From a virus, in IMG/VR virus record IMGVR_UViG_3300048999_000191: a stretch of DNA of 64,000 nucleotides. One strand, given 5' to 3'. The translations under genes were made by a program, and so were the position numbers. Shown here piece after piece: positions 20,283-61,722 of the stretch. The notes beneath the pieces are model-generated. The model saw only the letters and a list, made by a program, of their open reading frames with translations, ran no database searches and was not told the DNA's origin. Positions within the stretch are counted from its first letter, which is position 1; each line of letters begins with the position of its first letter.

Positions 20283-20928
20283 CGGGCACCGGCCTCGACA
20301 GCTGGACCAGGCCGACCGAGAACGCGTCGCGCTGATCCTGGTTCTTGATCAGATCCATGCCGGTGATCCCCAGCTGGACGGCCAGCTTCTTCAGCTCGGC
20401 GTGGTGCTGGGCCTTGGTCACTTTGTCCGTGCCGCAGACGAACCGCTTGTGGGTCTGCGGGGTGACCATGCGCTGAGTCGACAGCCGGAGATCGCGCGCG
20501 GCGACGCGCACGGCCATGCTGCCGAGGATTGAGGCTTCGGGCCGGATGATGCGGCCGCCGCCCGCCGGGGGCGCCTCGTGCACGATCTCCTGAGCGATGA
20601 GGCTGAATCCGGACGTGACCTCCAGCACCCAGTCCTTGAACTCCCCGGCGAGCTGCATGGCCCGCTGGAAGTTCGCCTCCCAGCCGGAGACCTCGCCTTC
20701 CTCGGTGCTGAACTTGCGCGCGGCGAGCACGCAGATCTGAGGGCTGCCCATCACCCAGGCATTGATCATGAAGACGGCGGCGAACTTGCGCAGCGACTGG
20801 TCGACGGCGATCACCTGGCGCGGGAAGTACTCGCGCATCGGGAGATCGTCCAGCGTCGGCGACCGCCACTCGTCCTTCGTCTTGCTCGGCCGACCGGCCG
20901 CGAAGGCCTCCAGGGCGTCGGTGTTCAT
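20275..20928 (-). CDS. RuvC-like Holliday junction resolvase
   Basis: IAVDQS, IVHE, K-x-x-x-G, DQRDA motif pattern. Confidence 0.7.
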   Translation of the reverse strand: MNTDALEAFAAGRPSKTKDEWRSPTLDDLPMREYFPRQVIAVDQSLRKFAAVFMINAWVMGSPQICVLAARKFSTEEGEVSGWEANFQRAMQLAGEFKDWVLEVTSGFSLIAQEIVHEAPPAGGGRIIRPEASILGSMAVRVAARDLRLSTQRMVTPQTHKRFVCGTDKVTKAQHHAELKKLAVQLGITGMDLIKNQDQRDAFSVGLVQLSRPVPGV

Positions 20929-22772: not shown

Positions 22773-23062
22773 CAGATGCCGAACGCCTTGAGCAGGGCCT
22801 TCATGCTGTCCTTGCTCTGCGCCTTCTGGGCCAGCTCGACGAGCAACTTGGCGGCCGTCTTTTCGTCTTCGAGGCCTTCCGCGAGCCACTCCATGATCAC
22901 CGGAGCGGCCTTGGCCATCTGAGCGTGATGCTCCAGCCCGGCGAGGTCCTCGGCCTCCTTCGGAGTCAGGATCAGGGGCGTCTCGGTCAGCCCGTAGACG
23001 ATGACCCGACCCTCGCCGAGCACGTACGTCCACTGAGCCCGGATTTCTCGGTCCTCGCTCAC
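22772..23062 (-). CDS. Hypothetical protein
   Basis: GTG start; coupled. Confidence 0.55.
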   Translation of the reverse strand: MSEDREIRAQWTYVLGEGRVIVYGLTETPLILTPKEAEDLAGLEHHAQMAKAAPVIMEWLAEGLEDEKTAAKLLVELAQKAQSKDSMKALLKAFGI

Positions 23063-23993: not shown

Positions 23994-25061
23994 TCAGCCC
24001 TCCTTGATCGGGTCGGTGATGACCTCGTGTGTTCGGGTGGCCAGAACCTTCTCCCGGATGGCCTCGCGCGCCTTGACGTTCTCGCGCAGGTAGGCGACCA
24101 CCGAGTCCTCGCCGTTGTGCTTCGAGCCATCCGGCAGGTCGTACCAGGCGCTCCGGCGGCCGAAGACGCCTGGGATGTTGCGGGCGGTGTTGAAGACGTC
24201 CCGGGCTACATCCAGGCCCATCGGGCCGTACTTCTCGGTGGTCTGGTTCCAGAAGGTCGCCTTCGCGGTCCGGCGCGGCGGGGCCACCTTGTTCTTCTCG
24301 ATGAACATGGCGATCTCCTGGCCGACCTGCTCCTCCGCATCCTTGCCGCCGATCATGTAGGGCTTGGTGCCGGTGCGCTTGAACTGCACGCGGTGCGTGG
24401 TCACGTGGGAGAGCGCGAAGCCGCCGGTGCGGGTCAGGTCCCCGCCGTAGGCCAAGTTGGCGCGCACCTGGTTGATGATCGAGAGAATGGCGCCGGTTCG
24501 GCCCATGTCCGCCGAAGCGATCTTGACCATGCGGGTTACGACCTTGGCGTTGGCCGCCATCGTGACCTCGTCGGCGTCCTTGTCCTTCTCGGTCTGGGTG
24601 ATCATCGCACCCACCGAGTCGAGCGTGATGAAGCCGAACATCGGCTCGCCGCCATCGGTAGCGTTGATCAGCTCTTTGGTGAGATCGGCGACTTCCTCGG
24701 CATTGCCGGGCTGGATCAGGATGAACCGGCTCGGGTCCAGGTCCAGGCCGTGCCCCCGCGACCAGTCCAGGTCGAAGGTGCCCTCGACATCGATCCACGC
24801 GGCCATCCGGTCCGGCACCTGCTTCTGAAACTCGGCGGCGGAGATCGTCAGCATGGTGGACTTGCCGGTCTGTTCCCGGCCCCACAGCTCGACGACACGG
24901 CCCTTCACCCAGCCACCGCAGCCGAGGGCGTAGTCCAGGGAGAGCGAGCCCGTGGGGACGACCTCCGGCGGGCCCTCGCTCAGGTCACGGATCGAGGCAC
25001 CCTCGTGGCGCTTTTCCAGGTCTTCGGTGAATTTCTTCAGCGCTGCCTTGCTCGGGCTCAT
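23994..25061 (-). CDS. recA: RecA-family recombinase
   Basis: PTGSLSLDYALG, GREQTGKST, DSVGAM, INQVR, TGGFAL. Confidence 0.95.
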   Translation of the reverse strand: MSPSKAALKKFTEDLEKRHEGASIRDLSEGPPEVVPTGSLSLDYALGCGGWVKGRVVELWGREQTGKSTMLTISAAEFQKQVPDRMAAWIDVEGTFDLDWSRGHGLDLDPSRFILIQPGNAEEVADLTKELINATDGGEPMFGFITLDSVGAMITQTEKDKDADEVTMAANAKVVTRMVKIASADMGRTGAILSIINQVRANLAYGGDLTRTGGFALSHVTTHRVQFKRTGTKPYMIGGKDAEEQVGQEIAMFIEKNKVAPPRRTAKATFWNQTTEKYGPMGLDVARDVFNTARNIPGVFGRRSAWYDLPDGSKHNGEDSVVAYLRENVKAREAIREKVLATRTHEVITDPIKEG

Positions 25062-28000
25062 GCGGTCACTCCTTGGATCGGGATGAAGGTGTCCAGGCGG
25101 CAGCCCCGGTCTCCCTTGGTGACCAGTGCGTACGCCAGGCTCCCCTTCACGAATTGGTCGCCCTGCTGCTCCCAGAGGGAGGGGAAGGCGGCGGTGGTGA
25201 ACGACCCACGAGGGGTGGAGAGGGTGACGATCGCCATGGCGTCACCCTTCTTCGTCTGGATCTTGCGGACGCCCTGGATCACGGCGGCGACCATGTAGTT
25301 GCCGAGGCCGCCGCTCTCGATGTCGTCGGCGGTCGCGAACTGCTCCATGTCCTCGGCCGGGATGACGTCGAACGGAGTGGAGGAGAGATAGGTCCCGAGC
25401 AGCTCCTGCTCGATCGCGCGGATCTCGGCGGCCGAGTAGGGCGCCACGGTGACGTCGCCGAGCCCGGCCGCCTCGGTCCACTGGCGGCAGCCCTTCGAGC
25501 AGGTCTTCGGGGGCGCCTTCCGGCGCTCCAGCTTGCCCGTGCGCTCGCTGGTCGTCTCCGGCTCACTCAGCCAGTCGAATCCGCACGGGAGCGTCCAGGA
25601 GGCCGTCTCAGGTGCCATGGGGACACCGCGCTTCGGCGAGGGGAGCCAGACCAGCTTCCGATCGTCCTCGGCGCGGTGTGCGCAGCGCTGGGCGGCCGGG
25701 AGCGAGTCGAACGCCAGCCGCTCCTCCAGCACCCGCCGGTTGGGCTCCAGCGAGTCGAACACCCCGAGCTTGACCATGGTGGCGATGTGGCCCTTGTTCA
25801 CCTTCGAGCCCCGGCGCTCCAGGAAGTCCTCCCAGGAGGCATAGGGCTGCCCGGCGATGATCGATTCGACGGCGATCGGCCCGAGCCCCTTGATCGCGTC
25901 CATCCCGTAGCGGATGTCCAGCCCGGTGTCGCCGATGGAGAAGCCACGCCCGGAGAGGTTGATGTCCGGCGAGAGGACCTTGTACCCCATCCGCCGCGTC
26001 TCTTCCACATAGGACACACGCACGTCGTCGTCCTTGGCGGTGGAGAGCGCGCCACACATGAAGTAGAGCGGGTAGTGGAATTTGAACCAGGCCGTCCAAA
26101 CACCCAGAATGGCGTAGGCGAGCGCGTGGGCGAAGCCGAAGCTGTACCGCGCGAACTCCTCCATCTGCGCCCACAGCTCGCGCGTGACGGCCTCGTCGGT
26201 GCCATTGGCCATGGCCCGCTCGATGAAGCGCGCGCCCTCCTTCTTCGCCTCCTCGACCTTTTTCTTGCCGAGGATCTTCCGGACCTTGTCGGCCTCGACG
26301 TCGTCGTACTGCGCGAGCACCATGCACAGCTTCATGAGCTGCTCCTGGTAGATCATGGAGTTGCCCGTGAGGATGTTGTCCTCCAGCACGAAGGCGTGCG
26401 TCTCCGGCACGACCGCGCAGAACACCTCTTCGACCCGGTCGGTCTCCTCGACCGACACGACGGCCCATTGGACTCGGTCCGCCTTCTGCCGTATTGCCCG
26501 CGCGGCGCTGAACCGGCGGCGGTGCTCCTCGATCAGGAAGAAGTCCTCGGCGAGCGTGGAGGCGACCAGGCCCAGGTCGTAAACGACGGCTTCGCGAGGC
26601 TCCGTTGATCCCGGCAGCGGCGATCGCGTTACTTTCTGGGTGATGCCATAGGTGCCGATGCCCACTAGTTGCGCTACCGTCCGGAAGCGCTCCAGATCCT
26701 CCCTGCGGGCGCTGGTGATCAAGGGCACCCCCTTGGCGGTCACCTGTCCGTCGGCTGCGAAGTACCCGGCCAGCCAGCCGTAGAGGTAGCTGGTTCCCTC
26801 ATCCAGGCGGGGTGCTTCGCGCCAGGACCTCGGCAGGTCGATGACCTCGATGTAAGGCACCGCGTTCGGACCCCCGTGCGGGGCGTAAGACCTCGTGCGC
26901 GAGTTCGGGAAGTACTTCAGCAGCTGTGCGTCCTTCTCGCCGTACAAACGCACACTGGCCTGGTTCTCGGTGCGCGTCCCATCACCGAAGACGATCCCGG
27001 CGGTGATCCCGAAGGGAGACGGGGTACTTCGGCTGGCCACGCGGCGCGGCAGCTGCGCAGCAAGCACCATGCCGGACCGCAGCTCGGTGGTCAGCAACTC
27101 CTTGACCTTGCTCTTGCTGTCGCTCCAACGTCCGAACCAGCGGTGGTTCGACGTCGCATAGATGACCTTCTCCTGCTTGTTGCGCCGCAGGCTCACCTTC
27201 ATGAGCGGCTGCACACCGAAGCTGCGCACTTCTGCATTGGTCCAGACCCCGCCCGTGGTCATGAGGTCGTGCTTCGACCCGACGAGATCACCGATCTCGC
27301 GCACGCCCTGCTTGGTTGTCACCCGAGTCTCGGCGGCAAAGCAGCCCCAGGTCTTGCCGAGGACCTCGCGCATCCGCTCGTCGGGGTAGTAGACCTCCTC
27401 CTCGCCCTTGCGCCGGGCCAGGTAGCGGTCGGTCAGCCCCGAGCGCGCCGGGCCGGGCCGGACCAGGGTCACCATGTCGGCCAGCTCGTGCAGGCCGCCG
27501 GGCTTCATCCGCCGGGACATCGCGGTGCCGATCGCCGAGCCGATCTGGAACAGGCCGAGACAATGGCCCTTCCCGATCTGGTCGTACAGCAGCGGGTCTT
27601 CCAGCTCCTCGGTCCAGGCGTAGGGGTTGATGCGCTTGCCGGTGTGCTCGAAGATCAGGTCCATCGCGGTCTGGATCATGTCCAGGTTGGCGATGTTGAG
27701 CAGGTCGAACTTCACGTACCCGAGTAGCTCCAGCACCTTCAGGTCGAATTGGGCGATCATCGTGCCGTCCTCGCCCATCCGCAGCGGCAGGTTCTCCGTC
27801 AGCGGATGATCCGGGTCGATGATCACGCCCGCCGGGTGCTTGCCGTAGGCCTTCAGCCGCCCGTGGAAGCGCTTGGCGTAGAGGAAGACGTCGGGGTATC
27901 GGTCGGCGTAGGGCTGGAGCAGGTCCCCGGCGCGGTCCCACAGTTCGTCCCAGGACAGCCCCAGACCGGCCGTGTCACCCTCGGCCGCCTCGATGATCTT

Positions 28001-29464
28001 CGAGCACTCCATCATGTCGGTCCAGTGGCCCTCGGGCAGGGTGTCCTTCAGCGCGCGAGCCACCGACTGGATGACGCTCTTGGACTTCAGCCGCATGTGC
28101 GTGCCGACGGTGGCCACGTTGGACTCGCCCCAGCGCTTCGCGACGTAGCCGTACATCTCGGCCTTCTTCGAGCTGGGGAAGTCGATGTCGAAGTCCGGCA
28201 GCTCCGTGCGACCCTTGGTCATGAAGCGCTCGAAGAGGACGTCGTGCTCGACCGGGTCGATCTCCGTGATGCCGAGCAGGTAGGCCACCAGCGAACCGCC
28301 GCCGGATCCGCGCCCGGGGCCGACCAGGATGCCGGTCCCCTTCGCGTAGCCGACGAGGTCGGCCACCATGAGGAAGTAGCCCGCGAAGCCCTTCGCCGCG
28401 ATCATCGTGAATTCGTTCTCGAACCGTCGCATGTAGGCGGTCGAGCCGTGCTTCTTCCCACTGGTGCGCTCGTCCCAGCGGTCCATGCATTGGGTCAGCA
28501 GCCGCTCGATGTCGTGCTTCGCGGGGTCGGGGTGGTCCTGGGTCTTGCGCGAGTAGACCGGGGTGTGGCTCGACAGCTCGATCTTTGCCGAGCACCTGTC
28601 GGCGATCGTCTGGGTGTTGGTGAAGGCGCGCTCCAAGATCTCGACCAGATAATCTGGACACCCACCGTGCTCTTCGGCGTAGTCCCGGTTCGCACCGAGA
28701 TAGCCGCGCACCTCGATGCCGGGCATGACGTGGTAGTCCTCGTCGCCCTCGAACATCGAGGAGTCGGCCAACTCATCGAGCGTCTTGCCGATGGCCGACG
28801 CCAGCCAGACCTTGTGTGCAGCCTTCTCTTGCGGTGTCGAGTAGTGCGAGTCGCAGGTGATGACCGGTTCGATCTTGTACCGCCAGGCCTCCTCCAGCAG
28901 CCAGGCGTTGCCCCGGAGCTGGTCCTCCTGCATGCCGGTCTGGATCTCCGCATAGAGCCGGTCGCCGAAGATTTCCTTGAGTCGCAGGAGGTTCGAGACG
29001 GCCAACTCCTCGTCGCCCTTGATGAAGGGGTTCAGCACCGGGCCGCCGAGGCACGCCGTCGAACACATGACGCCCTTGTTCAGGCGCTGCAAGGTGTCCC
29101 AATCGAGGCGCGCGTACTTGCCCCACAGACCGTCCCGATAGGATTCGGTGCTCATGGCCCAGAGGTTCTTCAAGCCCTCGTCGTCCATGGCCCACAGGAT
29201 CAGGTGCCAGTAGTCGGTGACCTTGCCCTCGCGGGAGAACCGGTCATCGACGAAGTAGGCCTCCAGGCCGAAGATCGGCTTGACACCCTCGGCCTCGCAG
29301 ATGATCTGAGCGTCCGGGTGCGCGGCGCAGTTGCCGTGGTCGGTGAACGCGACGGCGGTCTGCCCGTCGGCCTTGACCGCCGCGACGATCTCCTTCGTGG
29401 TTGAGAGACCGTCGAGTGGAGAATACTCAGTGTGAGTATGTAGGTGCACAAAGTTGCCAGACAT
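25058..29464 (-). CDS. dnaE: DNA polymerase III alpha subunit with intein
   Basis: PHP domain HLHTHTEYSPLDG, TDHG; GPGRGSGGGSLVAY; PDFDIDF; KFDLL; YQEQ; OB fold. Confidence 0.95.
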   Translation of the reverse strand: MSGNFVHLHTHTEYSPLDGLSTTKEIVAAVKADGQTAVAFTDHGNCAAHPDAQIICEAEGVKPIFGLEAYFVDDRFSREGKVTDYWHLILWAMDDEGLKNLWAMSTESYRDGLWGKYARLDWDTLQRLNKGVMCSTACLGGPVLNPFIKGDEELAVSNLLRLKEIFGDRLYAEIQTGMQEDQLRGNAWLLEEAWRYKIEPVITCDSHYSTPQEKAAHKVWLASAIGKTLDELADSSMFEGDEDYHVMPGIEVRGYLGANRDYAEEHGGCPDYLVEILERAFTNTQTIADRCSAKIELSSHTPVYSRKTQDHPDPAKHDIERLLTQCMDRWDERTSGKKHGSTAYMRRFENEFTMIAAKGFAGYFLMVADLVGYAKGTGILVGPGRGSGGGSLVAYLLGITEIDPVEHDVLFERFMTKGRTELPDFDIDFPSSKKAEMYGYVAKRWGESNVATVGTHMRLKSKSVIQSVARALKDTLPEGHWTDMMECSKIIEAAEGDTAGLGLSWDELWDRAGDLLQPYADRYPDVFLYAKRFHGRLKAYGKHPAGVIIDPDHPLTENLPLRMGEDGTMIAQFDLKVLELLGYVKFDLLNIANLDMIQTAMDLIFEHTGKRINPYAWTEELEDPLLYDQIGKGHCLGLFQIGSAIGTAMSRRMKPGGLHELADMVTLVRPGPARSGLTDRYLARRKGEEEVYYPDERMREVLGKTWGCFAAETRVTTKQGVREIGDLVGSKHDLMTTGGVWTNAEVRSFGVQPLMKVSLRRNKQEKVIYATSNHRWFGRWSDSKSKVKELLTTELRSGMVLAAQLPRRVASRSTPSPFGITAGIVFGDGTRTENQASVRLYGEKDAQLLKYFPNSRTRSYAPHGGPNAVPYIEVIDLPRSWREAPRLDEGTSYLYGWLAGYFAADGQVTAKGVPLITSARREDLERFRTVAQLVGIGTYGITQKVTRSPLPGSTEPREAVVYDLGLVASTLAEDFFLIEEHRRRFSAARAIRQKADRVQWAVVSVEETDRVEEVFCAVVPETHAFVLEDNILTGNSMIYQEQLMKLCMVLAQYDDVEADKVRKILGKKKVEEAKKEGARFIERAMANGTDEAVTRELWAQMEEFARYSFGFAHALAYAILGVWTAWFKFHYPLYFMCGALSTAKDDDVRVSYVEETRRMGYKVLSPDINLSGRGFSIGDTGLDIRYGMDAIKGLGPIAVESIIAGQPYASWEDFLERRGSKVNKGHIATMVKLGVFDSLEPNRRVLEERLAFDSLPAAQRCAHRAEDDRKLVWLPSPKRGVPMAPETASWTLPCGFDWLSEPETTSERTGKLERRKAPPKTCSKGCRQWTEAAGLGDVTVAPYSAAEIRAIEQELLGTYLSSTPFDVIPAEDMEQFATADDIESGGLGNYMVAAVIQGVRKIQTKKGDAMAIVTLSTPRGSFTTAAFPSLWEQQGDQFVKGSLAYALVTKGDRGCRLDTFIPIQGVTA
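26360..27343 (-). mobile_element. Intein (328 aa) with LAGLIDADG endonuclease in DnaE
   Basis: TWG|CFAAET...ATSNHRW...AGIVFGDG...LAGYFAADG...LTGN|SMIYQEQ. Confidence 0.9.
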
Positions 29465-51300: not shown

Positions 51301-53203
51301 AGGGAACGGACTTACGCCACTGCTCCGAGGGGAAGACGTTCACCGTCTTGTCGACCGGCCGGTAGACCTCGTAGGTCTGCGGGGAGAGATTGGTGAACTC
51401 CAACTTCCAGTACTTGGCCCGCGTCGGCGGGAAATACAGATATCCCTTGCGCAGCACATAATCCCGGGCGACCGGGTGCCACTCCATGAACGCGTAGCGA
51501 TCCGGGGCGCCGCCGATGAACGCGGACGGCGAGTTGGCGCTGAAGAAGCTGGGATGGTAGCGCAGCAGCGCGTTGTCGGTGCGTGGGTCGTTCTGCCCCA
51601 AGTAGACGCTGTTGAGCACGTAGGGGAACGGGTCGGCGAGGAACTGCTCGACCTCCTCGGGGGTCGGCGAGTCGTCCACCTTGAGGATGAGCGCCTTCAT
51701 CCGCGAGCGCGCCGCGCCCGGAGAGGCGCCCATGAAGGCACCCACGCGCATGGTTTTCACCGGACCGAGGGGGACGCTCAGCGGCAGCGTCCCGGCGAAC
51801 TCGCTGTTGCCGAAACGGATGGCCAGCCCGAGGGTCGTCCCATCGCTCCAGATGATGAAGTTGACCGGCGTTGCCGGGTCGAAGCCGACGAAGACCGGGC
51901 TGTCCGGCGTGGTGTAGATCGGCTGGCCATCGACGTCCACCGAGCCCGTGTAGATGCCCTGCGGCTCGGTCTCGGTCGGCACCAGCAGGCTGTCCCCGGC
52001 CGTGGTGGTGAGCCGGGGGCCGAGCGGGGTCCAGGCCAGGTTGAACTGGTCGCAGGAGAAGATCGGGCAGTCGTAGGCCTGCGTGCCGTGCTTGAACTTG
52101 AAGTTCAGCTGGCCGCCGAAGGACCACGGGCGCGAGGGGTCGAAGGCGATGCCCGCGTTGTTCAGCTCGATGAAGGCGATCGCGGTGTCGAAGGCCGGGT
52201 CGTCGAAGTTGAGCACGTTGCCGGTGACGCCCGCCGAGTTGTTGACGCTGGCGACCACCGGCGGCAGCGGGTCCGAGTTGGATCGGAACGCATTGGTGGG
52301 CTCGGAGTCCGACCAGTACAGGTTGCAGGTCGGGCCGTCATAGAGCGGATCCAGGTAGAACCGGTCGAGGATCTGGCCGTTACCCAGGCCGTCGCGGGCG
52401 TCCACGTAGAAGTTGACCACGGCCCAGGGGATCGGCTGCGGCTCGCTCTTCCAGACCGTGGTGAGGCTGTTCGCGCCGGTAGTCTCACCGATCGCGTTGG
52501 TCGCGGAGTTGACGCGCACCTGGAAGTCCACCGGCGAGCCGAACAGGTCCGTCGTGGTGGCGAAGGTGTCCCGCACCTCTCCCTGGGCGGGCTGGGTGTA
52601 GGGGACGTCGGAGAGCTTCCGGATCGAGTACGAGATCTTGAGGTTCCGGATGGCCAGCGAGTAGGGCATGAGCGCGCCCTGGCTGTTCGTCGGCGGCGTG
52701 CCGCGCTCGGAGCGCGAGAGGACCAGGCGCAGCAGCTTCGTGGAGATCGGCCTGATCTTGAAGGTGACCGTCCGCCAGTGGCCGGTGAAGCTGTGCTGCG
52801 GATGCAGGTGACCGATGATCGCGCTGGCGGGCGGGAGCACCGTGGGCACCGAATCCCGGACGCTGAAGGAGACCGGCGCCGGGCTGCCGGGCAGATCCTC
52901 CAGGCAGGGCGACCAGGCGCCGGTCTGCTCGTCGTAGAACTCGGCGTAGATGTCCTGAGGGAAGGCCGCCGCGTCGAACTCGATCTCGTTCAGCCGCCGG
53001 GCGCTGGTCAGTGTCAGCTGCATGACCTCGCGTGCGGTCGAGCTGGCGTCCCGGGACGGGCTGGCCCAGAACCGCTGGGTGTCCACGCTCTGCTGTGTCG
53101 ATCCGACGCTGTTCAGCCGGATGCCCTCAACGAGGTTCGACAGCGGCATGCCGCCGACCCAGGCCGGGGCCACCGAGGAGCCGGGGAGCTGCGGGGAGGT
53201 CAT
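48314..53203 (-). CDS. Large minor tail/baseplate protein
   Basis: 1629 aa, beta-rich; follows the baseplate wedge genes. Confidence 0.7.
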   Translation of the reverse strand: MTSPQLPGSSVAPAWVGGMPLSNLVEGIRLNSVGSTQQSVDTQRFWASPSRDASSTAREVMQLTLTSARRLNEIEFDAAAFPQDIYAEFYDEQTGAWSPCLEDLPGSPAPVSFSVRDSVPTVLPPASAIIGHLHPQHSFTGHWRTVTFKIRPISTKLLRLVLSRSERGTPPTNSQGALMPYSLAIRNLKISYSIRKLSDVPYTQPAQGEVRDTFATTTDLFGSPVDFQVRVNSATNAIGETTGANSLTTVWKSEPQPIPWAVVNFYVDARDGLGNGQILDRFYLDPLYDGPTCNLYWSDSEPTNAFRSNSDPLPPVVASVNNSAGVTGNVLNFDDPAFDTAIAFIELNNAGIAFDPSRPWSFGGQLNFKFKHGTQAYDCPIFSCDQFNLAWTPLGPRLTTTAGDSLLVPTETEPQGIYTGSVDVDGQPIYTTPDSPVFVGFDPATPVNFIIWSDGTTLGLAIRFGNSEFAGTLPLSVPLGPVKTMRVGAFMGASPGAARSRMKALILKVDDSPTPEEVEQFLADPFPYVLNSVYLGQNDPRTDNALLRYHPSFFSANSPSAFIGGAPDRYAFMEWHPVARDYVLRKGYLYFPPTRAKYWKLEFTNLSPQTYEVYRPVDKTVNVFPSEQWRKSVPSGSAPTSAAGLAELLPGRDNVYVVNTLTQSLDNNRTAIVGTKAPKSNTTARVIYDNAVRAKVADAYWAWSFLPMHATGSTPSWESTGVHNYQVINYSQVTKIGYFVGLRSIAAYKLSYLNTDDTNQYVDLFYDLSNVADGGNWILPQDHQLTSGDAAYAQVQSKVFPSNRVVTAVQFATQQSDPDQLLPDPDLSDPEIASWTSVGDAVLSDSSGQEPTLASTKRINRSQPPLTWGRVSLGYHTWGGITGLNATWGAVTIGSQIPGEVGGISSKPISLPLGGRVHVAARAIADADLSLPLSVQLVNVADGRVLADAEAQVKAGQITEWYASYTIGEGTSPAPWVWSDFASSGYSSQGLSATFGGPNATTLPVLDSGQLWQWPVDGSGNEQSLDIVSAAATVTADGQTDWVDTGSPWGTLSVTVGTMGSATPGTFALLRLDPFFITEVGALALFGADLPASRGLVLGANNTSYTVQSGDVISVDFLPADYVPSDKVDPTGSPYDQYAMMFWVNGVWKSTRTHNFGAQVTKGIKGHLNQKFTKFSWTPAPYGRIPGPTIAGMPRKGNGAWIDATVQQSWVDSAGRHWNVGTSNATTTPLATWDTTNNPESANHDEVGATLVASTDNAVFWTDTEEWNGNLTFRARAIAGTAGQVDPNGRRGMVACLDFDHGIYLDALGNLVQNGAVLQTGFLPGGIPLNKNVTIVFADSKLFNPAATSGRQVYVLYDSVLQGTAAPSAVNLMQGTKRGLAGSVYSGTRPGGANYTIDTSFQDFHWSPNAKLISLAVNKPTWASATRNGTLTYDEVLAQKDTEHLNVYARVVQQGATKDVWDVDNISLYAEPIIWSFSNDGGTTFIPAYEIRNNPSGVLVFPQISAVNLVQKPGNALVWRAVSYRPGATVSSVTIRPWYGGMFSGIDHRAALTPVSPNLMPYDQYGDIRKDARFQTWNLPVPRSWWYRFQILERVPTPGPSTAPIPVQPGYPGEAVFPGLNVYPGVATP

Positions 53204-54504
53204 CGAGCCGCCACCACCGTGTTCACGTTCAGGGAGCTGCGTGCCGAGGCGTAGGGCGCCGAGGTCATCACGCCGTCGGAGACCAGCTGGGTGGCGGCCG
53301 CCTGCGCGGCGGTCATCAGCCCGTTCTTCGCCTCATAGGATCGCGTCGTGCCGTCGCTGTAGGCGATCAAGTCGTCGTCACCCGGGGTCCGGGCGTCGTC
53401 CTCGTTGAGGGTGTAGCTCGTCACGGCCGCCACGTCGCCGTTGAGCGTCCATTCCTCGCCCTGGTACCCCGAGAACGCCGGACGCGCCTGCGGGGCCGCC
53501 ACGGCGAAGGTGGGGTCGAAAGACAGCGCCTTGACGTAGGGGTTGTAGTTCAGGTTGGGATGCGGCGTGACCGAGGAGATGATCTCCCAGTGCTCCGAGC
53601 TGGCCGAGACGTTCCGGATCTCGACCGGCTGGTGGATGTTCAGGCCCTTGTTGAAGACCGTGAATTGCGTCCCCACCGGCTTGAACGTGTTGAGCACCCG
53701 CATCAGCTGGAATTGCTCCCAGGTGGCCAGTGGGCGCTTCGGGACCAGCATCCAGTCCGACCGGGTGCGCTGGCTCGTCCGGCCGGTGAACAGCTGCCCG
53801 GCGCCCGCCCAGTCGCCCCAGGTACGCGCGGTCATGCCCTGGTACGTCCGGACGGTGTTGAGCAGGAAGTTGTAGGTGTAGTTCAGGACGTTGGGCTGGA
53901 AGCGCCCCGCGTCCTGCTCGTCGATCCACGTCCATGACTCGTAGATCTCGCACTCGGCGCCGATCAGCGACTCGGCCATGAGCTTCATGCCGGTGTAGCT
54001 GCCGCCGTTCGGGATCGAGCGCGCGAACTTGATCAATCGATCGCGGTAGCTCGCGTCGCGCGAGTGGATGTCGTCCCACTCGGCCGCCGAGGCGCCATCG
54101 CTGTAGGGGTCGAAATTGCCCGGCAGCAGCTCGGCCTGCGTGCGCCGGATGCCGAACAGCGCGCCGTAGAACCGGTCCAGGTCCAGGAAGTGCATGCCGG
54201 TGAAGCTGTTCTGCATCCGGGCCACGGCCAGCTGCTTGCGCAGCCCTCCGGAGCCGGACCCGCCCAGCATGACCTTGAGCAGCTTCATCAGGTGCGAGGT
54301 GTCGCGCAAGTCGTAGATCTCGGGGTCGAAATGCGCAAGTCGCTCGCTGGTGATCCGGTCCGGCACGATCGGATCGGAGGCGGTGAAGATGCCCTCGGTG
54401 GTATTCGGCTGGCCGGGCGCCAGCTGCATGGACATCAGGTCGGCGGCCGCCGCCGCGTCGAAGTTCTGGAAGAAGGACGGATTCTCGACGAGGGTATCGG
54501 CCAT
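53200..54504 (-). CDS. Baseplate wedge subunit (gpI-like)
   Basis: LDRFYGALFGIRR...DASYRDRL, FKPVGT; directly after baseplate J. Confidence 0.65.
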   Translation of the reverse strand: MADTLVENPSFFQNFDAAAAADLMSMQLAPGQPNTTEGIFTASDPIVPDRITSERLAHFDPEIYDLRDTSHLMKLLKVMLGGSGSGGLRKQLAVARMQNSFTGMHFLDLDRFYGALFGIRRTQAELLPGNFDPYSDGASAAEWDDIHSRDASYRDRLIKFARSIPNGGSYTGMKLMAESLIGAECEIYESWTWIDEQDAGRFQPNVLNYTYNFLLNTVRTYQGMTARTWGDWAGAGQLFTGRTSQRTRSDWMLVPKRPLATWEQFQLMRVLNTFKPVGTQFTVFNKGLNIHQPVEIRNVSASSEHWEIISSVTPHPNLNYNPYVKALSFDPTFAVAAPQARPAFSGYQGEEWTLNGDVAAVTSYTLNEDDARTPGDDDLIAYSDGTTRSYEAKNGLMTAAQAAATQLVSDGVMTSAPYASARSSLNVNTVVAAR

Positions 54505-54505
54505 C

Positions 54506-57421
54506 TCACGCCCCGATCATGAAGGTGTTCGGCGCCTTGGCAATGATGCGCGAGGAGTGGAACACGGGGTACTCGCTGTTGCCGAAGGTCGCATCGATCG
54601 CCCGGCCGCCGGAGGCGTAGAGCGAGAGCTGGCTGTTCGCCGTCCACGGCGACATCTGGGCCATGGCGTAGTTGGTCCCATCGTCGGTGGAAGTCAGGAA
54701 CCGGACGTTGTCCACGCCAGGTACATTGTGGACAGTCTGGAGAACATCGGAAACCTGAAGTGACGCGCCGAAGCCGAGGCTGGAGCACAGGGCGCTCAGC
54801 GCGATATCGATGTTCGTGTTCACCGAGCTGGCCTCGTACGCGCGGTCATAGACGATGGCGAAGTGGAATTTGACCATGCGGCGCAGCCCGCAATGGGTCT
54901 GCGCGTCGGTGCCGACCAGCCGCCACAGAGCGATGTTGTCCTGCACATCGCGGGCGATCCGGTTGTAGTTGTAGGTGATCGCGAACACCGCGTTGTTCGG
55001 CGGTACCCGGGTGGTCTGCCAGGACAGGCCGAACAACGATCCCGGGCTCATCCCGAAGGCGTCTTCGCGCTGGGTGATCCAGTAGTCCGAGCCCTCGGTG
55101 TAGGTCACGCCGTTGATCACCAGGGTGTCCGGCACGGCCAGCACCGGGCCGTAGGCCAGCGGGATGAAGATATTGCCCACCGGAGGCACGGGTGTAGCGG
55201 CGCTGGCCTGGGAGAAGGCCTGGTTGTAGTACGGGTCGTTGAACCCGGAGGTGAACAGCCGTGAGTTCGAGAAGCTCACGCTCTGCGTGGCGACATCGGC
55301 GATCGTGCCGTTGATCCACACGTCGACCCGGTTGTTGATCCCGCCCTTGGCGAAGCGGGTGTTGGCCGGGTCGTTGCGTGAGGCTCTCGGCACGTACTCG
55401 AAGTCGAGATCGTAGATCCCGTCCGGCATGCCGGTCAGCGCGGTCAGTGCCGCAGTGGCGCTGGTCCCGTTGGTCGGGTTCGACGGCGTGAAGGTGAAGT
55501 TCGTGCCCTGGGTGAGCAGGTTCCCCGCGTCGATGTCGGCGCCGCAGTAGACGTTGTCCGGGAAGATGTAGGCCGCCCGGAGCACGGTGCTCGCCGCCGT
55601 CCCCGCCACCACCTGGATCTGCTCGCGGTAGCGCTTCGAGGACCCGAGCACGTTCACCTGCGTCACCGCGCGGGTGTTCGGCATCGTGGGGTCCTGGGGC
55701 GTTGCCAGGGCGATCGCCTGGTACATGCTCTGGGTCCCCGCCAGCGAGCGGAAGACGGTGTTCCGGAAGCGCGTGCGCAGGTCGGCGTCGGACTCCTGGT
55801 TCGAGCCGCCGGAGAGCGGGCCCGCGTTCACCACCTTGGCGATGCCGGAGACGGCCGTGGCCACGGTGACCAGCATCCCGGCCGCGACGTTGCCGCTCGT
55901 GCCCGCCACGACCGCCTGAACCGGCACGTCGGCGGTCAGCTGCCCGGGGCTCATCACGGCGGACACGGTGGTCATCACGTAGATGATCGGGTTCGTCTGG
56001 GCGACCACCTGCGTGCCGGGCGGGATGACCAGGGCCGTGGTGGCGGCGAACTGGTCGTTCGGCCGGGTGAAGGTGACCACGCCCTGCGACCGGGACGACG
56101 GGATCCGCGTGATGCCGAACAGTGCGCAGTTGTGTGCCGCCATGCCGCCGAGCAGCGTGTAGGAGTTGTCCACGTCGACTTCGAGGTTGTGAACGGTCCC
56201 CTGGTAGGCGACCAGCCTGTGCTCGGCGATAGCGTGGCCCAGCATCCCGTCGAGGATTACCCCGGCAGGAGCGTATGCGCCGCGAGCCAGCTCCGGCGTC
56301 GTCTCCCTGGTGATTTCCGCGATGCGCCGCGCGTACTCGCCCCGCGCCGTGAGCCGGTAGGCGGTCCGCTTGCCTGCGCCGCCTTCCTTCACGTCCATCC
56401 GCGTGAAGATCTTCTTCCGCAGCAGCAGCGCACGGATCTGGTAGACGAGTGCCGGGGACGTCGTGACGAAGTCGGCGACGGTGTCTGTGGTCGAGACGTG
56501 GCCGTCGCCTTGCCAGACGGCGGCCAGCAGGTCGGTGAGGTCGCTGCCGGACCAGAACACTTCCCAGGGGATGTGCTTGTCCGCGCAGCCGTGGCCCAGT
56601 AAGCTCCGCAGTTTTGCGGCGAACTTCTTGCTGAAGACCGTCAGCTGCCGCTCGCCGGAGTTGGGCTTGCTGTGGCTGACCCGGGCGAAGCCCCATTCGC
56701 TCTTGATCAGCTCTTCGATCGTCTCGTGGTACTCGGTCTCGTGTTCGGCCAGCGAAAAGACGATGCGCCCGCACTCAGTGGTCGAGCCCTCGGCGAGAAA
56801 CCAGCCGTAGAGCCGCTGAAGGTTCTTGTTCAGCTGCGAGCGCTTCGCCGGTTCCGGGGCTGCGCCCCAGACCACATCGCCCTTCCGCAGCTCTCCGGCG
56901 GCGATCCATTCTCGGCGGACGTGCTCCGTGGACCACCGGGCCCGCGAGCCCGTCCCGCGCAGCGCGAAAGAGCGCACGCCCTTAGCCGGGATGAGCCATT
57001 CCCGCTTGGTGGCGAGCAGCGGATGGTTGCCCGTCATGGACACCGATGGCTGGCCCAGCGGGCGCATCGTCACGATGTCCTCGTCCACGCAGCGGACCGA
57101 CGAAGCAAGCACCGTCCGGTGCTTGCCCGTGTGCGAGATCACCGTCTCACCAGGCCCGACCTCTTCGATCGGACGCGGGCCGTCGGCAGTCACGACAAGC
57201 GTGCCCGGGACGAAGCAGAAGTCGTCGAGATCGCCGCCGGATTTCGAGTCGATGTCGTACTGGTACTGGATCAGGTGCGAGTCCGAGTAGGCCTCGGCGA
57301 TCGACTCCGAGACGGCGTCGATCAGCTTCCGGGCCACGGTGCCTACGGAGACATCCAGGTCCGGCTCGGCGGCGTTGAGCGCAGCGACCATCTTGGCCGC
57401 CACGTCGCCGGTCGAAGTCAT
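54506..57421 (-). CDS. Baseplate J-like wedge protein with intein
   Basis: LDDF|CALFGITR, GNVAAG, SGGSNQESDADLRTR, C-terminal VPGVDNV. Confidence 0.88.
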   Translation of the reverse strand: MTSTGDVAAKMVAALNAAEPDLDVSVGTVARKLIDAVSESIAEAYSDSHLIQYQYDIDSKSGGDLDDFCFVPGTLVVTADGPRPIEEVGPGETVISHTGKHRTVLASSVRCVDEDIVTMRPLGQPSVSMTGNHPLLATKREWLIPAKGVRSFALRGTGSRARWSTEHVRREWIAAGELRKGDVVWGAAPEPAKRSQLNKNLQRLYGWFLAEGSTTECGRIVFSLAEHETEYHETIEELIKSEWGFARVSHSKPNSGERQLTVFSKKFAAKLRSLLGHGCADKHIPWEVFWSGSDLTDLLAAVWQGDGHVSTTDTVADFVTTSPALVYQIRALLLRKKIFTRMDVKEGGAGKRTAYRLTARGEYARRIAEITRETTPELARGAYAPAGVILDGMLGHAIAEHRLVAYQGTVHNLEVDVDNSYTLLGGMAAHNCALFGITRIPSSRSQGVVTFTRPNDQFAATTALVIPPGTQVVAQTNPIIYVMTTVSAVMSPGQLTADVPVQAVVAGTSGNVAAGMLVTVATAVSGIAKVVNAGPLSGGSNQESDADLRTRFRNTVFRSLAGTQSMYQAIALATPQDPTMPNTRAVTQVNVLGSSKRYREQIQVVAGTAASTVLRAAYIFPDNVYCGADIDAGNLLTQGTNFTFTPSNPTNGTSATAALTALTGMPDGIYDLDFEYVPRASRNDPANTRFAKGGINNRVDVWINGTIADVATQSVSFSNSRLFTSGFNDPYYNQAFSQASAATPVPPVGNIFIPLAYGPVLAVPDTLVINGVTYTEGSDYWITQREDAFGMSPGSLFGLSWQTTRVPPNNAVFAITYNYNRIARDVQDNIALWRLVGTDAQTHCGLRRMVKFHFAIVYDRAYEASSVNTNIDIALSALCSSLGFGASLQVSDVLQTVHNVPGVDNVRFLTSTDDGTNYAMAQMSPWTANSQLSLYASGGRAIDATFGNSEYPVFHSSRIIAKAPNTFMIGA
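56129..57217 (-). mobile_element. Intein (363 aa) with LAGLIDADG endonuclease in baseplate J
   Basis: CFVPGTLV...TGNHPL...YGWFLAEG...LAAVWQGDG...VHNLEVDVDNSY...AHN; +1 Cys. Confidence 0.9.
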
Positions 57422-58276: not shown

Positions 58277-59119
58277 TTAAGGAGGCGTCAACCCGACGTC
58301 CTTCACGCTGAGATAGCGGCCCTGACCTCCGTAGAAGGTGATCGAGGCCGAAGTGGAGCCGGAGTTGGCAGCGATGCCGAATGCGCGGGTCTCCGTGGTC
58401 ACCGCGTCGAAGACCGCACTCAGGATGATGATCTCCTGGGTGGCGTTGTAGACCCGGATGCCCGAGCCTCGGATGCTCGGCGAGGCGTTGGTCACCGAGG
58501 TCGTCGCACTGAGGAGACTGGCCTGGCCGTTCGGCGGCCCGGCGGACAGCGACCCGGCCTGGTTGCAGTGCCAGTTGATCTCGTAGGAGCGCCCGGCCAC
58601 GACCGGCACGGCCAGCGACTCCAGCATGATGGGCGTGGGGCTGACGACGGTGACGTCCGTGGGAAACCGGACGATCTTCAACAGACCCCTGGGCAGGGCG
58701 TTCGCCTGCGTCTGGAGCGCGGCCACCTGTGCCTGGAGGGTCGTCACGCTGGGCGGGATGCGCTCGACCCAGGCCGAACCATTCCAGTACCAGATCGAGT
58801 AGGTGTCGAGCTGGTAGACGGCCAGGTTGACGAACGGGTTCTTGATCGCCAGTCGCTCGGCGGAGTTGCCCACCATGAGCACCGGATTAACCGGGTCGCC
58901 GCCGATGATCGCGGCGAAGGTCCAATCGGCCCCGTAGGCCATGTCGAGGATCCACCGCTCGCCGGGCATCGGGGGCAGCGCGTGCGCCCTGAGTACGTCC
59001 CTGGCGACCGGGAACGACTTGCCGGTGTGGTCGGACCGGACGTAGGCCGTGTTGCCGTCCACGGACAGCACGGTGACGGCCTGGATGCTCAGGCCCTGGA
59101 TCGGCATGGCGCCGGTCAC
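58277..59119 (-). CDS. Baseplate spike/tail protein
   Basis: OB-like N-terminus (PMPGERW), coiled coil, beta-sandwich C-terminus; follows the hub. Confidence 0.55.
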   Translation of the reverse strand: MTGAMPIQGLSIQAVTVLSVDGNTAYVRSDHTGKSFPVARDVLRAHALPPMPGERWILDMAYGADWTFAAIIGGDPVNPVLMVGNSAERLAIKNPFVNLAVYQLDTYSIWYWNGSAWVERIPPSVTTLQAQVAALQTQANALPRGLLKIVRFPTDVTVVSPTPIMLESLAVPVVAGRSYEINWHCNQAGSLSAGPPNGQASLLSATTSVTNASPSIRGSGIRVYNATQEIIILSAVFDAVTTETRAFGIAANSGSTSASITFYGGQGRYLSVKDVGLTPP

Positions 59120-61722
59120 GAGGCACCTCGCGGGGTCTTGTTGGCCGGTTCGAGATCCTGACGGACGACGTTGTAACGCTTCCCGCCCAGCGGCAGCAGA
59201 CCGAACACGTCGTTGGTCTTCTGGCTGATCCGGCTCGGCGCGCACACGCTGGCCGAGGTCCGGAAGTAGCCGTCCTCGCCGGTCTTGAAGCTGTGGTTCA
59301 CCTCGGTGATGTAGGCCTGGAAGTTGAACTCGGGCAGCCGCAGGATCATCCCCGGCCACAGCTCGGGCATCCAGGTCATCGGGATGTTCGCCGAGAACTG
59401 GTCAGCCCACTTGCGCATGAACAGAAACAGGGCCAGGAAGAACTCCGGCAGGCCCTGTTTCACGGTCGGCAGGGTGACGGTGTTCGGCCGGGCGCCGAAA
59501 CGGCCGAGGAACTCGTCCAGGAACTGCTGGCTGGCATCCTGGCCGAAGATCGCCCGGAAGATCTGCGGGAACTCCATGGTGGCGATGCCCGAGCTGGTCA
59601 GCTGCCAGGCGTATCCGCTGTTCGAGCCATTGGCGAAGGTCTGCCCGCTGGTGTTGATCGAGTTCGTGATGCCTGCCGGGACGCCAATGACGTACTGGTG
59701 GGTAACCGTCTGGAGGTCCGACCAGGTGACCGTGAAGTCCATCAGCTCGATCGAGCGGACGTCCATCTTCGCCGAGATGCCCCAGAGGTCGAAGTAGTCC
59801 GGGAACCAGGCCATGAAGTCGCCGTTGGGCGCCGAGCACCACGAGCGCATCGAGGCGGCCATGAGGTTGCCGAGGAAGGGCAGGATCGGCTGGTCGTTCA
59901 TCAGCGCACGCGGACCGACGAGGATCTGCCCGGCCAGGTCCGGCACATAGCCCCAGCTGTAGACGTTGATCAAGGCATTGAATACATCGAGCGCCGAGGT
60001 GTCACTGCCGCTGCCGCTGCCCTGCGCAGCGTCCACCGACGCGCCGTCCGGCTTGAATTCGTTCTGGTCGGTGATGTTCGCCGAGTAGCCCAGCTTGCTC
60101 TGGATGAACTGAGCGGCTGCCTGCGTGGTGGCCGCGTCCGAGTAGTTCACGCCGTTGATCAGGCCGCCGTCGGTGAACCCGTTCGCCTGGACGATCGAGA
60201 CCTGCTTCTCCAGCGGGATGCCATCGGTGTGCGCTCCGGCGGAGTAGCCGTTGCCCAGCGAGACCTCGACGTGGCCGGTGCCGACGAACAGCAGCGCGCC
60301 CTTGATCTGCTTGGCCATGTCGGTCGGGATGATGATGCACTTCGGTCGCTCGGTGGAGACCGTGGAGCGCGGATTGACCCAGGGCTTGCCCACTGCCCGG
60401 AAGTAGGCGACGTCCACAAAGGACGAACAGTCGAGCACCTTCGGGTCCGGTGAGTTGTAGGGGTCGTCGCCACCGAGGGAGTACCGGATGTGCCCGGCCG
60501 GGTTCCCCTTGATCAGGTTGTAGGCCTGCGCGGCCACGTTTCGGCCGGTGGCTCCCTGTGGTTTCCCGATGGCCGTCGTCGAGCCGATAGTGCTGCCCGC
60601 ACCGGAGCCCACGATGGCGTTCCCGGCTTCAGTGGAGGTCTTCTGGATCGCCGTCACGATCGCCTCGGCGGCCGTCTCCTGCTTGGCGTACTTGTCCGGG
60701 AAGGCCGAACGCTGAACGGCTTGGCAGGTCAGTCCGAAGTCGGCCGTCTTGTAGTTCGGCACCTTCACCAGCCGGTCAAAGAAGCTGCCCGACGCGTGCG
60801 CGACGTCCGTGCACTCGGCCACGGTGCCCCAGCCCTGACTCGGCCGCTGCTGGAAGACGCCCACCGAGTCGCGGTCGCCGCCCTGGAGGTTCTTCAGCCG
60901 GGACTCCACAATGCCGGTCGCGATCCCCTGGGCGGCCGCACGCGGCTCCAACCCTCGGTCGGCAGCCACGTTGTAGATGATCGAGGCGTTCTTCGCCTGG
61001 TCCGCGTCGAGCGCCATCCCACCGTAGGTGCCCGGCCCTACCTGGCCGTGCGCCAGGCTGCCGCCGGAGAGCCCCGAGCCGCCGGAGAGGCCGTTGCCCA
61101 TCGAGCCGATGAGGTTCGAGTAGTCGCTGGCCTTGATGATCTCGTCACCCACCTGGGTGGCGAAGGTGAACCAGTCGTCGGGGATCGCTCCAATGTGGAC
61201 CTTCTCTTTCGGCCAGCGCACCACCTCCGCCAGGATGCTCAGGGTGAGGTCGCGCATGCCGCCGTCGCCGGTGGGCTGGCCCGCGTTCGCCTGCTGGTCG
61301 CTCGCGATCCCCGAGGTCTTCGAGCCGACCTTCTGGATCAGGTTCGCCGACTCCTGGGCGCCGGAGTCCCAGTACCAGTACTGGAGCCGTTTCAGGGTGC
61401 AGCTGGCCGAGAGGTCGAGCACGCGCGGCCAGACGGAGAAGACCGGGCCGTTGTTCATGTACCCGGAGAACACGCGCAGCGGCTGCCCGATGCGCTGCAT
61501 GGACACGACGATCCGGTCCATCGGCCTGATCAGGCCGTCGTACTTCCGCTGGGTGTTCTGGAGCTGGAAGGCAAAGGTGTGCACGCCCTCGGTGCGCAGC
61601 TTCATGTCGCCGCCGGTGAGGTCCTCGGAGATGTCCAGGACCTGCTCGACGCCCTTCTTGTTAATCACGGAGATGAAGGCAAACACCCGGGGCTGATAAA
61701 TGAGAGTGGAAATCGTTATCAC
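59116..61722 (-). CDS. Baseplate hub fused to lysozyme-like and NlpC/P60 domains
   Basis: VES.L.NL.GGDRDSVGVFQQRPSQGWG; YSLGG...LDCSSFV...GHV; hub C-terminus MPELWPGMILR. Confidence 0.8.
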   Translation of the reverse strand: MITISTLIYQPRVFAFISVINKKGVEQVLDISEDLTGGDMKLRTEGVHTFAFQLQNTQRKYDGLIRPMDRIVVSMQRIGQPLRVFSGYMNNGPVFSVWPRVLDLSASCTLKRLQYWYWDSGAQESANLIQKVGSKTSGIASDQQANAGQPTGDGGMRDLTLSILAEVVRWPKEKVHIGAIPDDWFTFATQVGDEIIKASDYSNLIGSMGNGLSGGSGLSGGSLAHGQVGPGTYGGMALDADQAKNASIIYNVAADRGLEPRAAAQGIATGIVESRLKNLQGGDRDSVGVFQQRPSQGWGTVAECTDVAHASGSFFDRLVKVPNYKTADFGLTCQAVQRSAFPDKYAKQETAAEAIVTAIQKTSTEAGNAIVGSGAGSTIGSTTAIGKPQGATGRNVAAQAYNLIKGNPAGHIRYSLGGDDPYNSPDPKVLDCSSFVDVAYFRAVGKPWVNPRSTVSTERPKCIIIPTDMAKQIKGALLFVGTGHVEVSLGNGYSAGAHTDGIPLEKQVSIVQANGFTDGGLINGVNYSDAATTQAAAQFIQSKLGYSANITDQNEFKPDGASVDAAQGSGSGSDTSALDVFNALINVYSWGYVPDLAGQILVGPRALMNDQPILPFLGNLMAASMRSWCSAPNGDFMAWFPDYFDLWGISAKMDVRSIELMDFTVTWSDLQTVTHQYVIGVPAGITNSINTSGQTFANGSNSGYAWQLTSSGIATMEFPQIFRAIFGQDASQQFLDEFLGRFGARPNTVTLPTVKQGLPEFFLALFLFMRKWADQFSANIPMTWMPELWPGMILRLPEFNFQAYITEVNHSFKTGEDGYFRTSASVCAPSRISQKTNDVFGLLPLGGKRYNVVRQDLEPANKTPRGAS

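Follow-up and report, generated by a model that had tools for sequence, protein, structure and literature searches.

The baseplate J gene and its insert

We analysed a 64,000-nucleotide stretch of viral DNA (IMG/VR record IMGVR_UViG_3300048999_000191; hereafter the window, meaning this whole stretch), whose source is an uncultured, high-GC (66.5%) phage, and focused on one of its genes, which encodes a baseplate J protein interrupted by an intein. The gene is a single uninterrupted open reading frame (ORF) of 971 codons on the minus strand (54506..57421), and three Pfam families fall within it: Baseplate_J, LAGLIDADG_3 and Hint_2. Baseplate_J lies on residues 432-574 of the 971 amino acids (aa) (1.4e-22, 80.6 bits against a cutoff of 21.1) and the ORF matches PHROG 6, baseplate wedge subunit (8e-43), which places the host among the gp6/J/gp47-type wedge proteins. 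Third-position GC over the ORF is 0.91, typical for the real genes of the window.

The intein occupies 56129..57217 (minus strand) and comprises 363 aa (Cys1 to Asn363, CFVPGTLVV...LLGGMAAHN), corresponding to ORF residues 69-431, with a Hint splicing domain that is split by a LAGLIDADG homing endonuclease domain. It sits between F68 and C69 of the wedge protein, the latter being the extein Cys+1, and is flanked by SGGDLDDF upstream and CALFGITR downstream (AAHN|CALFG). A sequence-only reading had placed a 363-aa class-1 intein at exactly these coordinates, after residue 68 of baseplate J, and each of the motifs it named was found. The N-extein (57218..57421, minus strand) contributes 68 aa ending in the conserved motif DLDDF, and the 608-aa intein-less homologues described below align with it position by position over their own first 68 aa. 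The C-extein (54506..56128, minus strand) contributes 540 aa plus the stop codon, begins with CALFGITR and its Cys+1 nucleophile, and by itself retains the Baseplate_J (9.9e-23) and PHROG 6 (8.7e-40) matches. Third-position GC is 0.87 in the intein versus 0.91-0.93 in the exteins, so that the codon usage of the intein is near that of its host gene. Within the C-extein coding sequence, and wholly antisense to it, ARAGORN calls a 91-nt tRNA-Tyr(GTA) at 55197..55287 (plus strand), most likely a false positive.

To place the insert against its intein-less counterparts, we searched 5.8 billion clustered proteins, obtaining 147 homologues, and counted presence and absence of the segment in the 120 best. 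It is missing from 119 of these, most of which are exactly 608 aa long (971 minus 363) and read DLDDF|CALFGITR (or DLDDF|V...) straight through the site, just as the sequence-only reading had expected for the protein once its intein is removed. The nearest homologue (P0001) is encoded on a 136-kb metagenomic contig (L001) and is 95% identical over the extein; its gene measures 1827 nt (2916 minus 1089) and aligns without gaps to the window gene lacking the 1089 nt, at 89.6% identity. The empty site of L001 agrees with the window junction at 55 of 60 nt, with all five differences silent, and intein-less relatives were found on contigs of 136-157 kb. In three other samples, contigs encode the identical 971-aa protein, one of them identical in DNA over 5 kb and one with 10 single-nucleotide polymorphisms (SNPs) over 6 kb, which excludes an assembly artefact or chimera. 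The insertion is exact and in frame, far beyond a chance pattern.

Residue conservation was read from an alignment of the window intein with 25 relatives (26 sequences), in which no sequence departs from C1, T62, H65, E143, G144, K214, D238, G239 and N363, and H362 is nearly invariant (at least 90% conserved). These residues fall in the canonical blocks, all on the minus strand. Block A (CFVPGTLVVTADG, 57179..57217) opens with the Cys1 nucleophile in CFVPG, and block B (VSMTGNHPLLA, 57011..57043) holds T62 and H65. The first LAGLIDADG motif (LQRLYGWFLAEGST, 56780..56821) contains LYGWFLAEGS with the catalytic E143, and the helix that it forms in the model (residues 131-143) opens the first half of the endonuclease. 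Block D (GCADKHIPWEV, 56558..56590) supplies Lys214; the second LAGLIDADG motif (LTDLLAAVWQGDGHV, 56495..56539) contains LLAAVWQGDGH with the catalytic D238, its helix (228-238) opening the second half; and blocks F and G (AYQGTVHNLEVDVDNSYTLLGGMAAHN, 56129..56209) end in His362-Asn363. Three further cysteines lie within the intein, at positions 43, 149 and 211.

The Pfam scores agree with this layout (LAGLIDADG_3 at 38.9 bits against a cutoff of 22.5, Hint_2 at 31.5 against 28.4), as does an AlphaFold2 model of the intein (predicted local distance difference test, pLDDT, 94.3; predicted template-modelling score, pTM, 0.92), in which two alpha-beta-beta-alpha-beta-beta-alpha units lie between the halves of a beta-rich domain. 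The modelled endonuclease runs as helix 131-143, two strands, helix 161-175, two strands and helix 197-207, and then repeats as helix 228-238, two strands, helix 255-267, two strands and helix 294-302. Searching this model against the Protein Data Bank (PDB) with Foldseek returned top matches that are all endonuclease-bearing inteins at probability 1.00, led by TliVMA (7qsu, E 1e-18, template-modelling (TM) score 0.69) and including PI-SceI, PI-PfuI, PhoVMA and PI-PkoII, while the middle part matches the free LAGLIDADG enzymes I-DmoI and I-Tsp061I (target TM 0.63-0.69). At the sequence level a phmmer search of the PDB with the single intein found nothing, and the 26-sequence family profile was needed to reach PI-PkoII (2.4e-33). 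Class 3 inteins carry a Trp-Cys-Thr triad and usually lack the Cys1 route. Their features are absent here: no Trp follows the block B His (NHPLL), the block F residue is Asn and not Cys, block G (MAAHN) has no Thr, and the penultimate His is kept. Judged by its residues and modelled fold, the insert is a full-length class-1 intein, and not one of class 2 or class 3, with a two-motif, monomeric LAGLIDADG endonuclease.

The insertion site and the distribution of the intein

We also evaluated the site itself among the 119 intein-less homologues. L65, F68 and R76 are invariant there, and D64, D66, D67, F72 and G73 are conserved in at least 90%; no other N-terminal motif of the family is conserved so strongly. 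For structure we modelled the spliced homologue P0001 (built with 119 sequences, pLDDT 89.4), and in this model the site falls in helix 62-71 of an N-terminal helical region. The model matches wedge chains from the solved baseplates of phiCD508, cyanophage A-1(L), phi812, Pa193, Mu and T4 (gp6), as well as TssF, with E values from 3e-17 to 3e-4; the global TM scores are low (0.15-0.25) because the domain orientations differ. By analogy with T4 gp6 and Mu gp47, the helical region presumably forms the wedge core bundle together with a neighbouring gene product. Since the intein interrupts the most conserved helix of this region, an unspliced precursor is unlikely to join the wedge, and on the same analogy a 40-kDa insert in the helical region should prevent assembly until it is spliced out. 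That assembly depends on splicing, as the sequence-only reading had proposed, is thus a reasonable view, and the position of the site and the modelled helix suggest that splicing is very probably required for the baseplate to assemble.

The search for both intein-less and intein-bearing homologues revealed, beside the many empty alleles, three other baseplate J proteins that carry a homologous intein at the identical residue boundary: P0060 (1013 aa, on a 145.5-kb contig, L005 8001-11042), P0122 (976 aa, on seven contigs) and P0123 (982 aa). All three are deeply diverged from the window protein, and their inteins are 33-45% identical to its own. The distribution is patchy: on an extein tree, for which the columns around the insertion site were left out, the window gene is nested deep in a clade of 42 members, none of the other 41 having an intein, and at least three changes of intein presence are needed. 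A word-index search with the intein alone found P0060 as the only baseplate J relative, and a pattern scan of IMG/VR with the four baseplate J inteins found one locus only, holding a different intein in a protein other than J.

On the intein tree the four baseplate J inteins fall inside one clade with 99% support. The hosts of its six other members are three PD-(D/E)XK nucleases, an SPP1-type portal, a DinG-like helicase and a small protein that has no annotation. The tree would also allow the four to form a clade by themselves, at a support of only 57%. Exteins and insertion sites differ within the larger clade, so that the baseplate J lineage implies a switch of extein. As a separate observation, a 519-aa metagenomic protein (P0125) carries a relative of the intein at 36% identity that makes up 379 of its 519 residues, nearly three times the size of its host, and the extein has no Pfam family.

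Comparing inteins and exteins pair by pair gave identities of 44.5 versus 43.3, 37.7 versus 32.9, 32.7 versus 34.3 and 53.7 versus 42.0% (ranges 33-54% and 33-43%). The intein identities are close to the extein identities, which implies that the association of intein and baseplate J is old. Either of two histories could have maintained it, homing that recurred among relatives or inheritance accompanied by numerous losses, and these data fit both.

Two small observations favour mobility. First, P0060 is the sole Cys+1 protein in a clade otherwise bearing Val, Ala or Thr, and the +1 residue is its only difference in a 14-residue stretch around the site; from this alignment, its Cys nucleophile seems to have arrived with the intein or to have been selected for it. 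Second, in one of the contigs encoding the identical 971-aa protein (L003), 8 of the 10 SNPs found over 6 kb form a silent cluster of 1.1 kb (L003 3299-4386, equivalent to nt 1299-2386 of the window gene, in the C-extein) that begins 6 nt beyond the intein's 3' end; the intein itself, the N-extein and the 2.7 kb upstream are free of SNPs. The chance of all eight gene SNPs landing in the C-extein is about 0.009, a figure from small numbers that we treat as a lead only, and the cluster possibly marks a recombination or homing boundary at the intein junction. We also looked for a co-conversion tract around the site and rejected it, as identity between the window and L001 beside the junction (0.93-0.95 in 60-nt windows) is not distinctive against the average of 0.90.

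Two more inteins lie in the window, both on the minus strand. The second, of ~328 aa (26360..27343), is in a DNA polymerase III alpha (DnaE) ORF (25058..29464), with boundaries KTWG|CFAAETRV ... ILTGN|SMIYQ, Ser at +1 and Gly in place of the penultimate His. The third, of ~349 aa (21264..22310), is in an exonuclease ORF (20925..23033, phrog_2506) with a C-terminal four-Cys cluster, and has boundaries ELFELK|CLDPETPV ... IVTHN|TMNDMK and Thr at +1; the start of that ORF (GTG at 23033) is probably placed too far upstream, with an ATG at residue 88 more likely. We evaluated the three inteins as copies of one another and rejected this, as BLASTP gave E values of 0.16 and 0.008 (the latter for the DnaE intein) over the motifs only.

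Mobile element, dormant passenger or switch

We consider it probable, and hold with good confidence, that the insert is a selfish mobile element residing between F68 and C69 of wedge protein J, namely a class-1 intein of canonical type whose two-motif LAGLIDADG endonuclease is intact. It is a real and complete homing intein of the ordinary kind and, to judge from its catalytic residues and fold, one that is probably active. The gene would be translated as a precursor of ~105 kDa, in which the Hint domain would carry out an N-S acyl shift at Cys1, trans-thioesterification to Cys+1, cyclisation of Asn363 and a final S-N shift. The products would be a 608-aa baseplate J with a restored DLDDF-CALFGITR junction (junction peptide SGGDLDDFCALFGITR) and a free 40-kDa endonuclease. 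The freed endonuclease would then recognise the uninterrupted allele in co-infecting related phages, and double-strand-break repair would copy the intein into the cut allele. Cleavage of intein-less alleles in co-infecting relatives had been put forward from the sequence and is plausible, with the catalytic residues intact and a near-identical empty site present in a relative of 90% nucleotide identity.

Several observations weigh against this account of a mobile, active element. Intein identity follows extein identity from pair to pair, which also fits long vertical descent with many losses. No close donor is known, in that the nearest intein anywhere among the clustered proteins is 40-45% identical, its own exact copies aside, so that a recent homing event is not traceable. 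No filled/empty polymorphism was seen within the lineage, all four sampled copies carrying the intein. In all four baseplate J inteins, Asn stands at the block F position where many class-1 inteins have Asp. What speaks for splicing and for DNA cleavage is the residues and the fold.

Some of these same points lead to the alternative that survives best, namely that the intein still splices while its endonuclease, in a late phase of the homing cycle, no longer acts on the available targets, the intein persisting vertically in this lineage because an imprecise loss would destroy an essential gene. We regard this as rather unlikely. It would account for there being no intein of more than 45% identity other than exact copies, for the similar divergence of intein and extein in each pair, and for four filled alleles out of four sampled. 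Decaying endonucleases, however, usually lose their catalytic residues and fold, whereas this one keeps both catalytic acids, the Lys of block D and the complete double alpha-beta-beta-alpha-beta-beta-alpha fold, with the residues invariant across the 26-sequence alignment. Moreover, had descent been purely vertical, the intein-less sister groups nested in the window's clade would have had to lose the intein precisely and independently roughly ten times or more.

Beyond mobility and persistence, baseplate J splicing might be put to use by the phage. One form of this idea is that it acts as a real checkpoint, with assembly held until redox conditions or Zn permit splicing, or else as a weapon, a late and multi-copy structural host supplying endonuclease in a burst, by which co-infecting intein-less relatives have their baseplate genes cut and their alleles excluded, rather than being the work of a neutral parasite; we think this quite improbable. 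In a narrower form, co-option would have made the intein a conditional splicing switch, in which a Cys1-Cys+1 disulfide or bound Zn keeps baseplate J inert and gates tail assembly by redox or metal state, and this we judge very unlikely. On its side are the cysteines at positions 1 and +1, the further intein cysteines at 43, 149 and 211, the presence of at least three inteins in the window, and the redox- and stimulus-dependent splicing that has been described for other inteins (references gathered in PMC7156551). Against it, no feature of the locus is specific to regulation, and the three inteins of the window are mutually unrelated, which argues against a coordinated system. Any such regulation is dispensable, since 119 of the 120 best homologues manage without the intein, and the retained endonuclease argues for a selfish element.

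The sequence-only reading had suggested that Cys at both junctions could make morphogenesis redox- or metal-sensitive, and we found nothing specific in its favour, the Cys1/Cys+1 pair being the commonest in class-1 inteins. Among the 119 intein-less homologues the +1 residue is Val in 66 and Cys in 47, and Cys+1 is native in 41 of the 42 intein-less proteins of the window's clade; the cysteine was thus not brought by the intein as an adaptation. Reading Cys+1 as the scar of past intein occupancy is likewise unsupported, given that it is structured by clade (8 changes on the tree versus ~39 when shuffled).

That the insert never splices and stays as an extra baseplate domain, or is an artefact of assembly or annotation, merits almost no credence, given that Cys1, TxxH or the terminal HN is typically missing from Hint domains that do not splice, whereas all residues for the four splicing steps are present here, that the insert disrupts an invariant helix, and that the identical ORF recurs in three other samples.

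Comparison with known systems

Among cultured phages, the C-extein is 27-29% identical to baseplate J of myoviruses of Mycobacterium (cluster C), Rhodococcus (E3/Finch) and Gordonia by tblastn, and a megablast search of 50,697 phage records gave no match to the precursor gene. The gene order is shared with relatives, running from small upstream baseplate genes through J and a DUF7297 gene to a large fibre-like protein. In the same part of the window, an 868-aa virion protein (59116..61722, minus strand; PHROG 2810), in which residues 220-400 are also similar to lysin-like stretches of tape-measure proteins and endolysins, is probably a tail-associated cell-wall hydrolase of the baseplate. As a member of the PF04865 wedge proteins (Baseplate J, T4 gp6, Mu gp47, P2 gpJ, TssF), the window extein passes the Pfam threshold and matches their fold, and it differs from the solved or cultured examples that we compared in that none of those has an intein and in its low identity to the cultured actinophage J proteins.

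We know of no nucleic-acid role for baseplate J. Its place among intein hosts is best seen against two surveys. Kelley et al. 2016 listed mycobacteriophage inteins in terminase, portal, primase, methylase, helicase, nucleotidyltransferase, ThyX and one hypothetical protein, and said that every phage intein host binds nucleic acid (PMC5050341). A 2025 survey of PhagesDB lists ~800 inteins in 19 host proteins, with additions including minor capsid, tape-measure and one 'baseplate wedge domain protein' (bioRxiv 10.1101/2025.01.02.630785).

The last of these, gp135 of Mycobacterium phage Pinkcreek (MZ958745; bioRxiv 10.1101/2025.01.02.630785), is the only published intein that we found in this baseplate module, and it resembles the window case in that the intein is of class 1 with a LAGLIDADG endonuclease, the host gene encodes a virion protein and belongs to the baseplate module, and the phage is a large actinophage myovirus. 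The host, however, is a different protein: gp135 is a DUF7297 protein (2e-246) encoded a few genes downstream of the Pinkcreek baseplate J (gp131), which is itself intein-less and reads LELEQF|VGIFGFGR, with Val at +1. Its counterpart in the window is the gene directly downstream of baseplate J (53200..54504, minus strand; DUF7297, PHROG 2813 virion structural protein), and that gene is intein-less. A tblastn search of the same phage records with the window intein matched only methylase- and helicase-type inteins (19-29% identity), the Pinkcreek intein not being among the matches.

A full-text literature search found no published intein in baseplate J. Other candidates for a prior baseplate intein (CampHawk, IBB_35, TaPaz, L. 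plantarum phages, Mic1 and CBB) were rejected, as they hold helicase, terminase, PhoH/RNR or polymerase inteins, or none. The novelty that the sequence-only reading had seen in a virion host is therefore reduced by the published portal, minor capsid, tape-measure and Pinkcreek DUF7297 inteins, and what stands is that no published baseplate J record was found. The window case thus adds the J/gp6 wedge protein to the intein hosts, at a host and site that we did not find described, and by itself brings no new mechanism. It is also of use in arguing that inteins are drawn to conserved sites and not to any particular function. For annotation, the 971-aa ORF is better given as a 608-aa baseplate J plus an intein, and the intein should be excised before phylogenetic or structural work. 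The intein and its 60-bp target are, in addition, a candidate splicing tool or rare-cutting endonuclease from a high-GC background.

With respect to its closest relatives, the window intein shares the 99% clade, 36-39% identity, and the same architecture and catalytic residues with actinophage inteins of portal, Cas4/RecB-like exonuclease and helicase genes (PMC5050341; the 2025 survey) and with metagenomic relatives (P0121, P0129/P0147/P0151 and P0140), from which the baseplate J inteins differ in extein and insertion site. Together the four make up an intein lineage that has specialised on a single invariant site (DLDDF|C) in four phage lineages, deeply diverged from one another; its sister inteins reside in portal, helicase and nuclease genes. 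Among inteins of solved structure, the best fold matches (E 1e-18 to 7e-13, TM up to 0.69) are the endonuclease-bearing TliVMA and PhoVMA (7qsu, 7qss, 7qst), PI-SceI (1vde, 1lws), PI-PfuI (1dq3) and PI-PkoII (2cw7), which have in common with the window intein a Hint domain with Cys1, TxxH and His-Asn and a monomeric two-motif LAGLIDADG endonuclease. In sequence the window intein is only 10-15% identical to them, and at 363 aa it is shorter than PI-SceI (454 aa); their hosts are V-ATPase, ribonucleotide reductase and DNA polymerase, whereas the host in the window is a virion protein.

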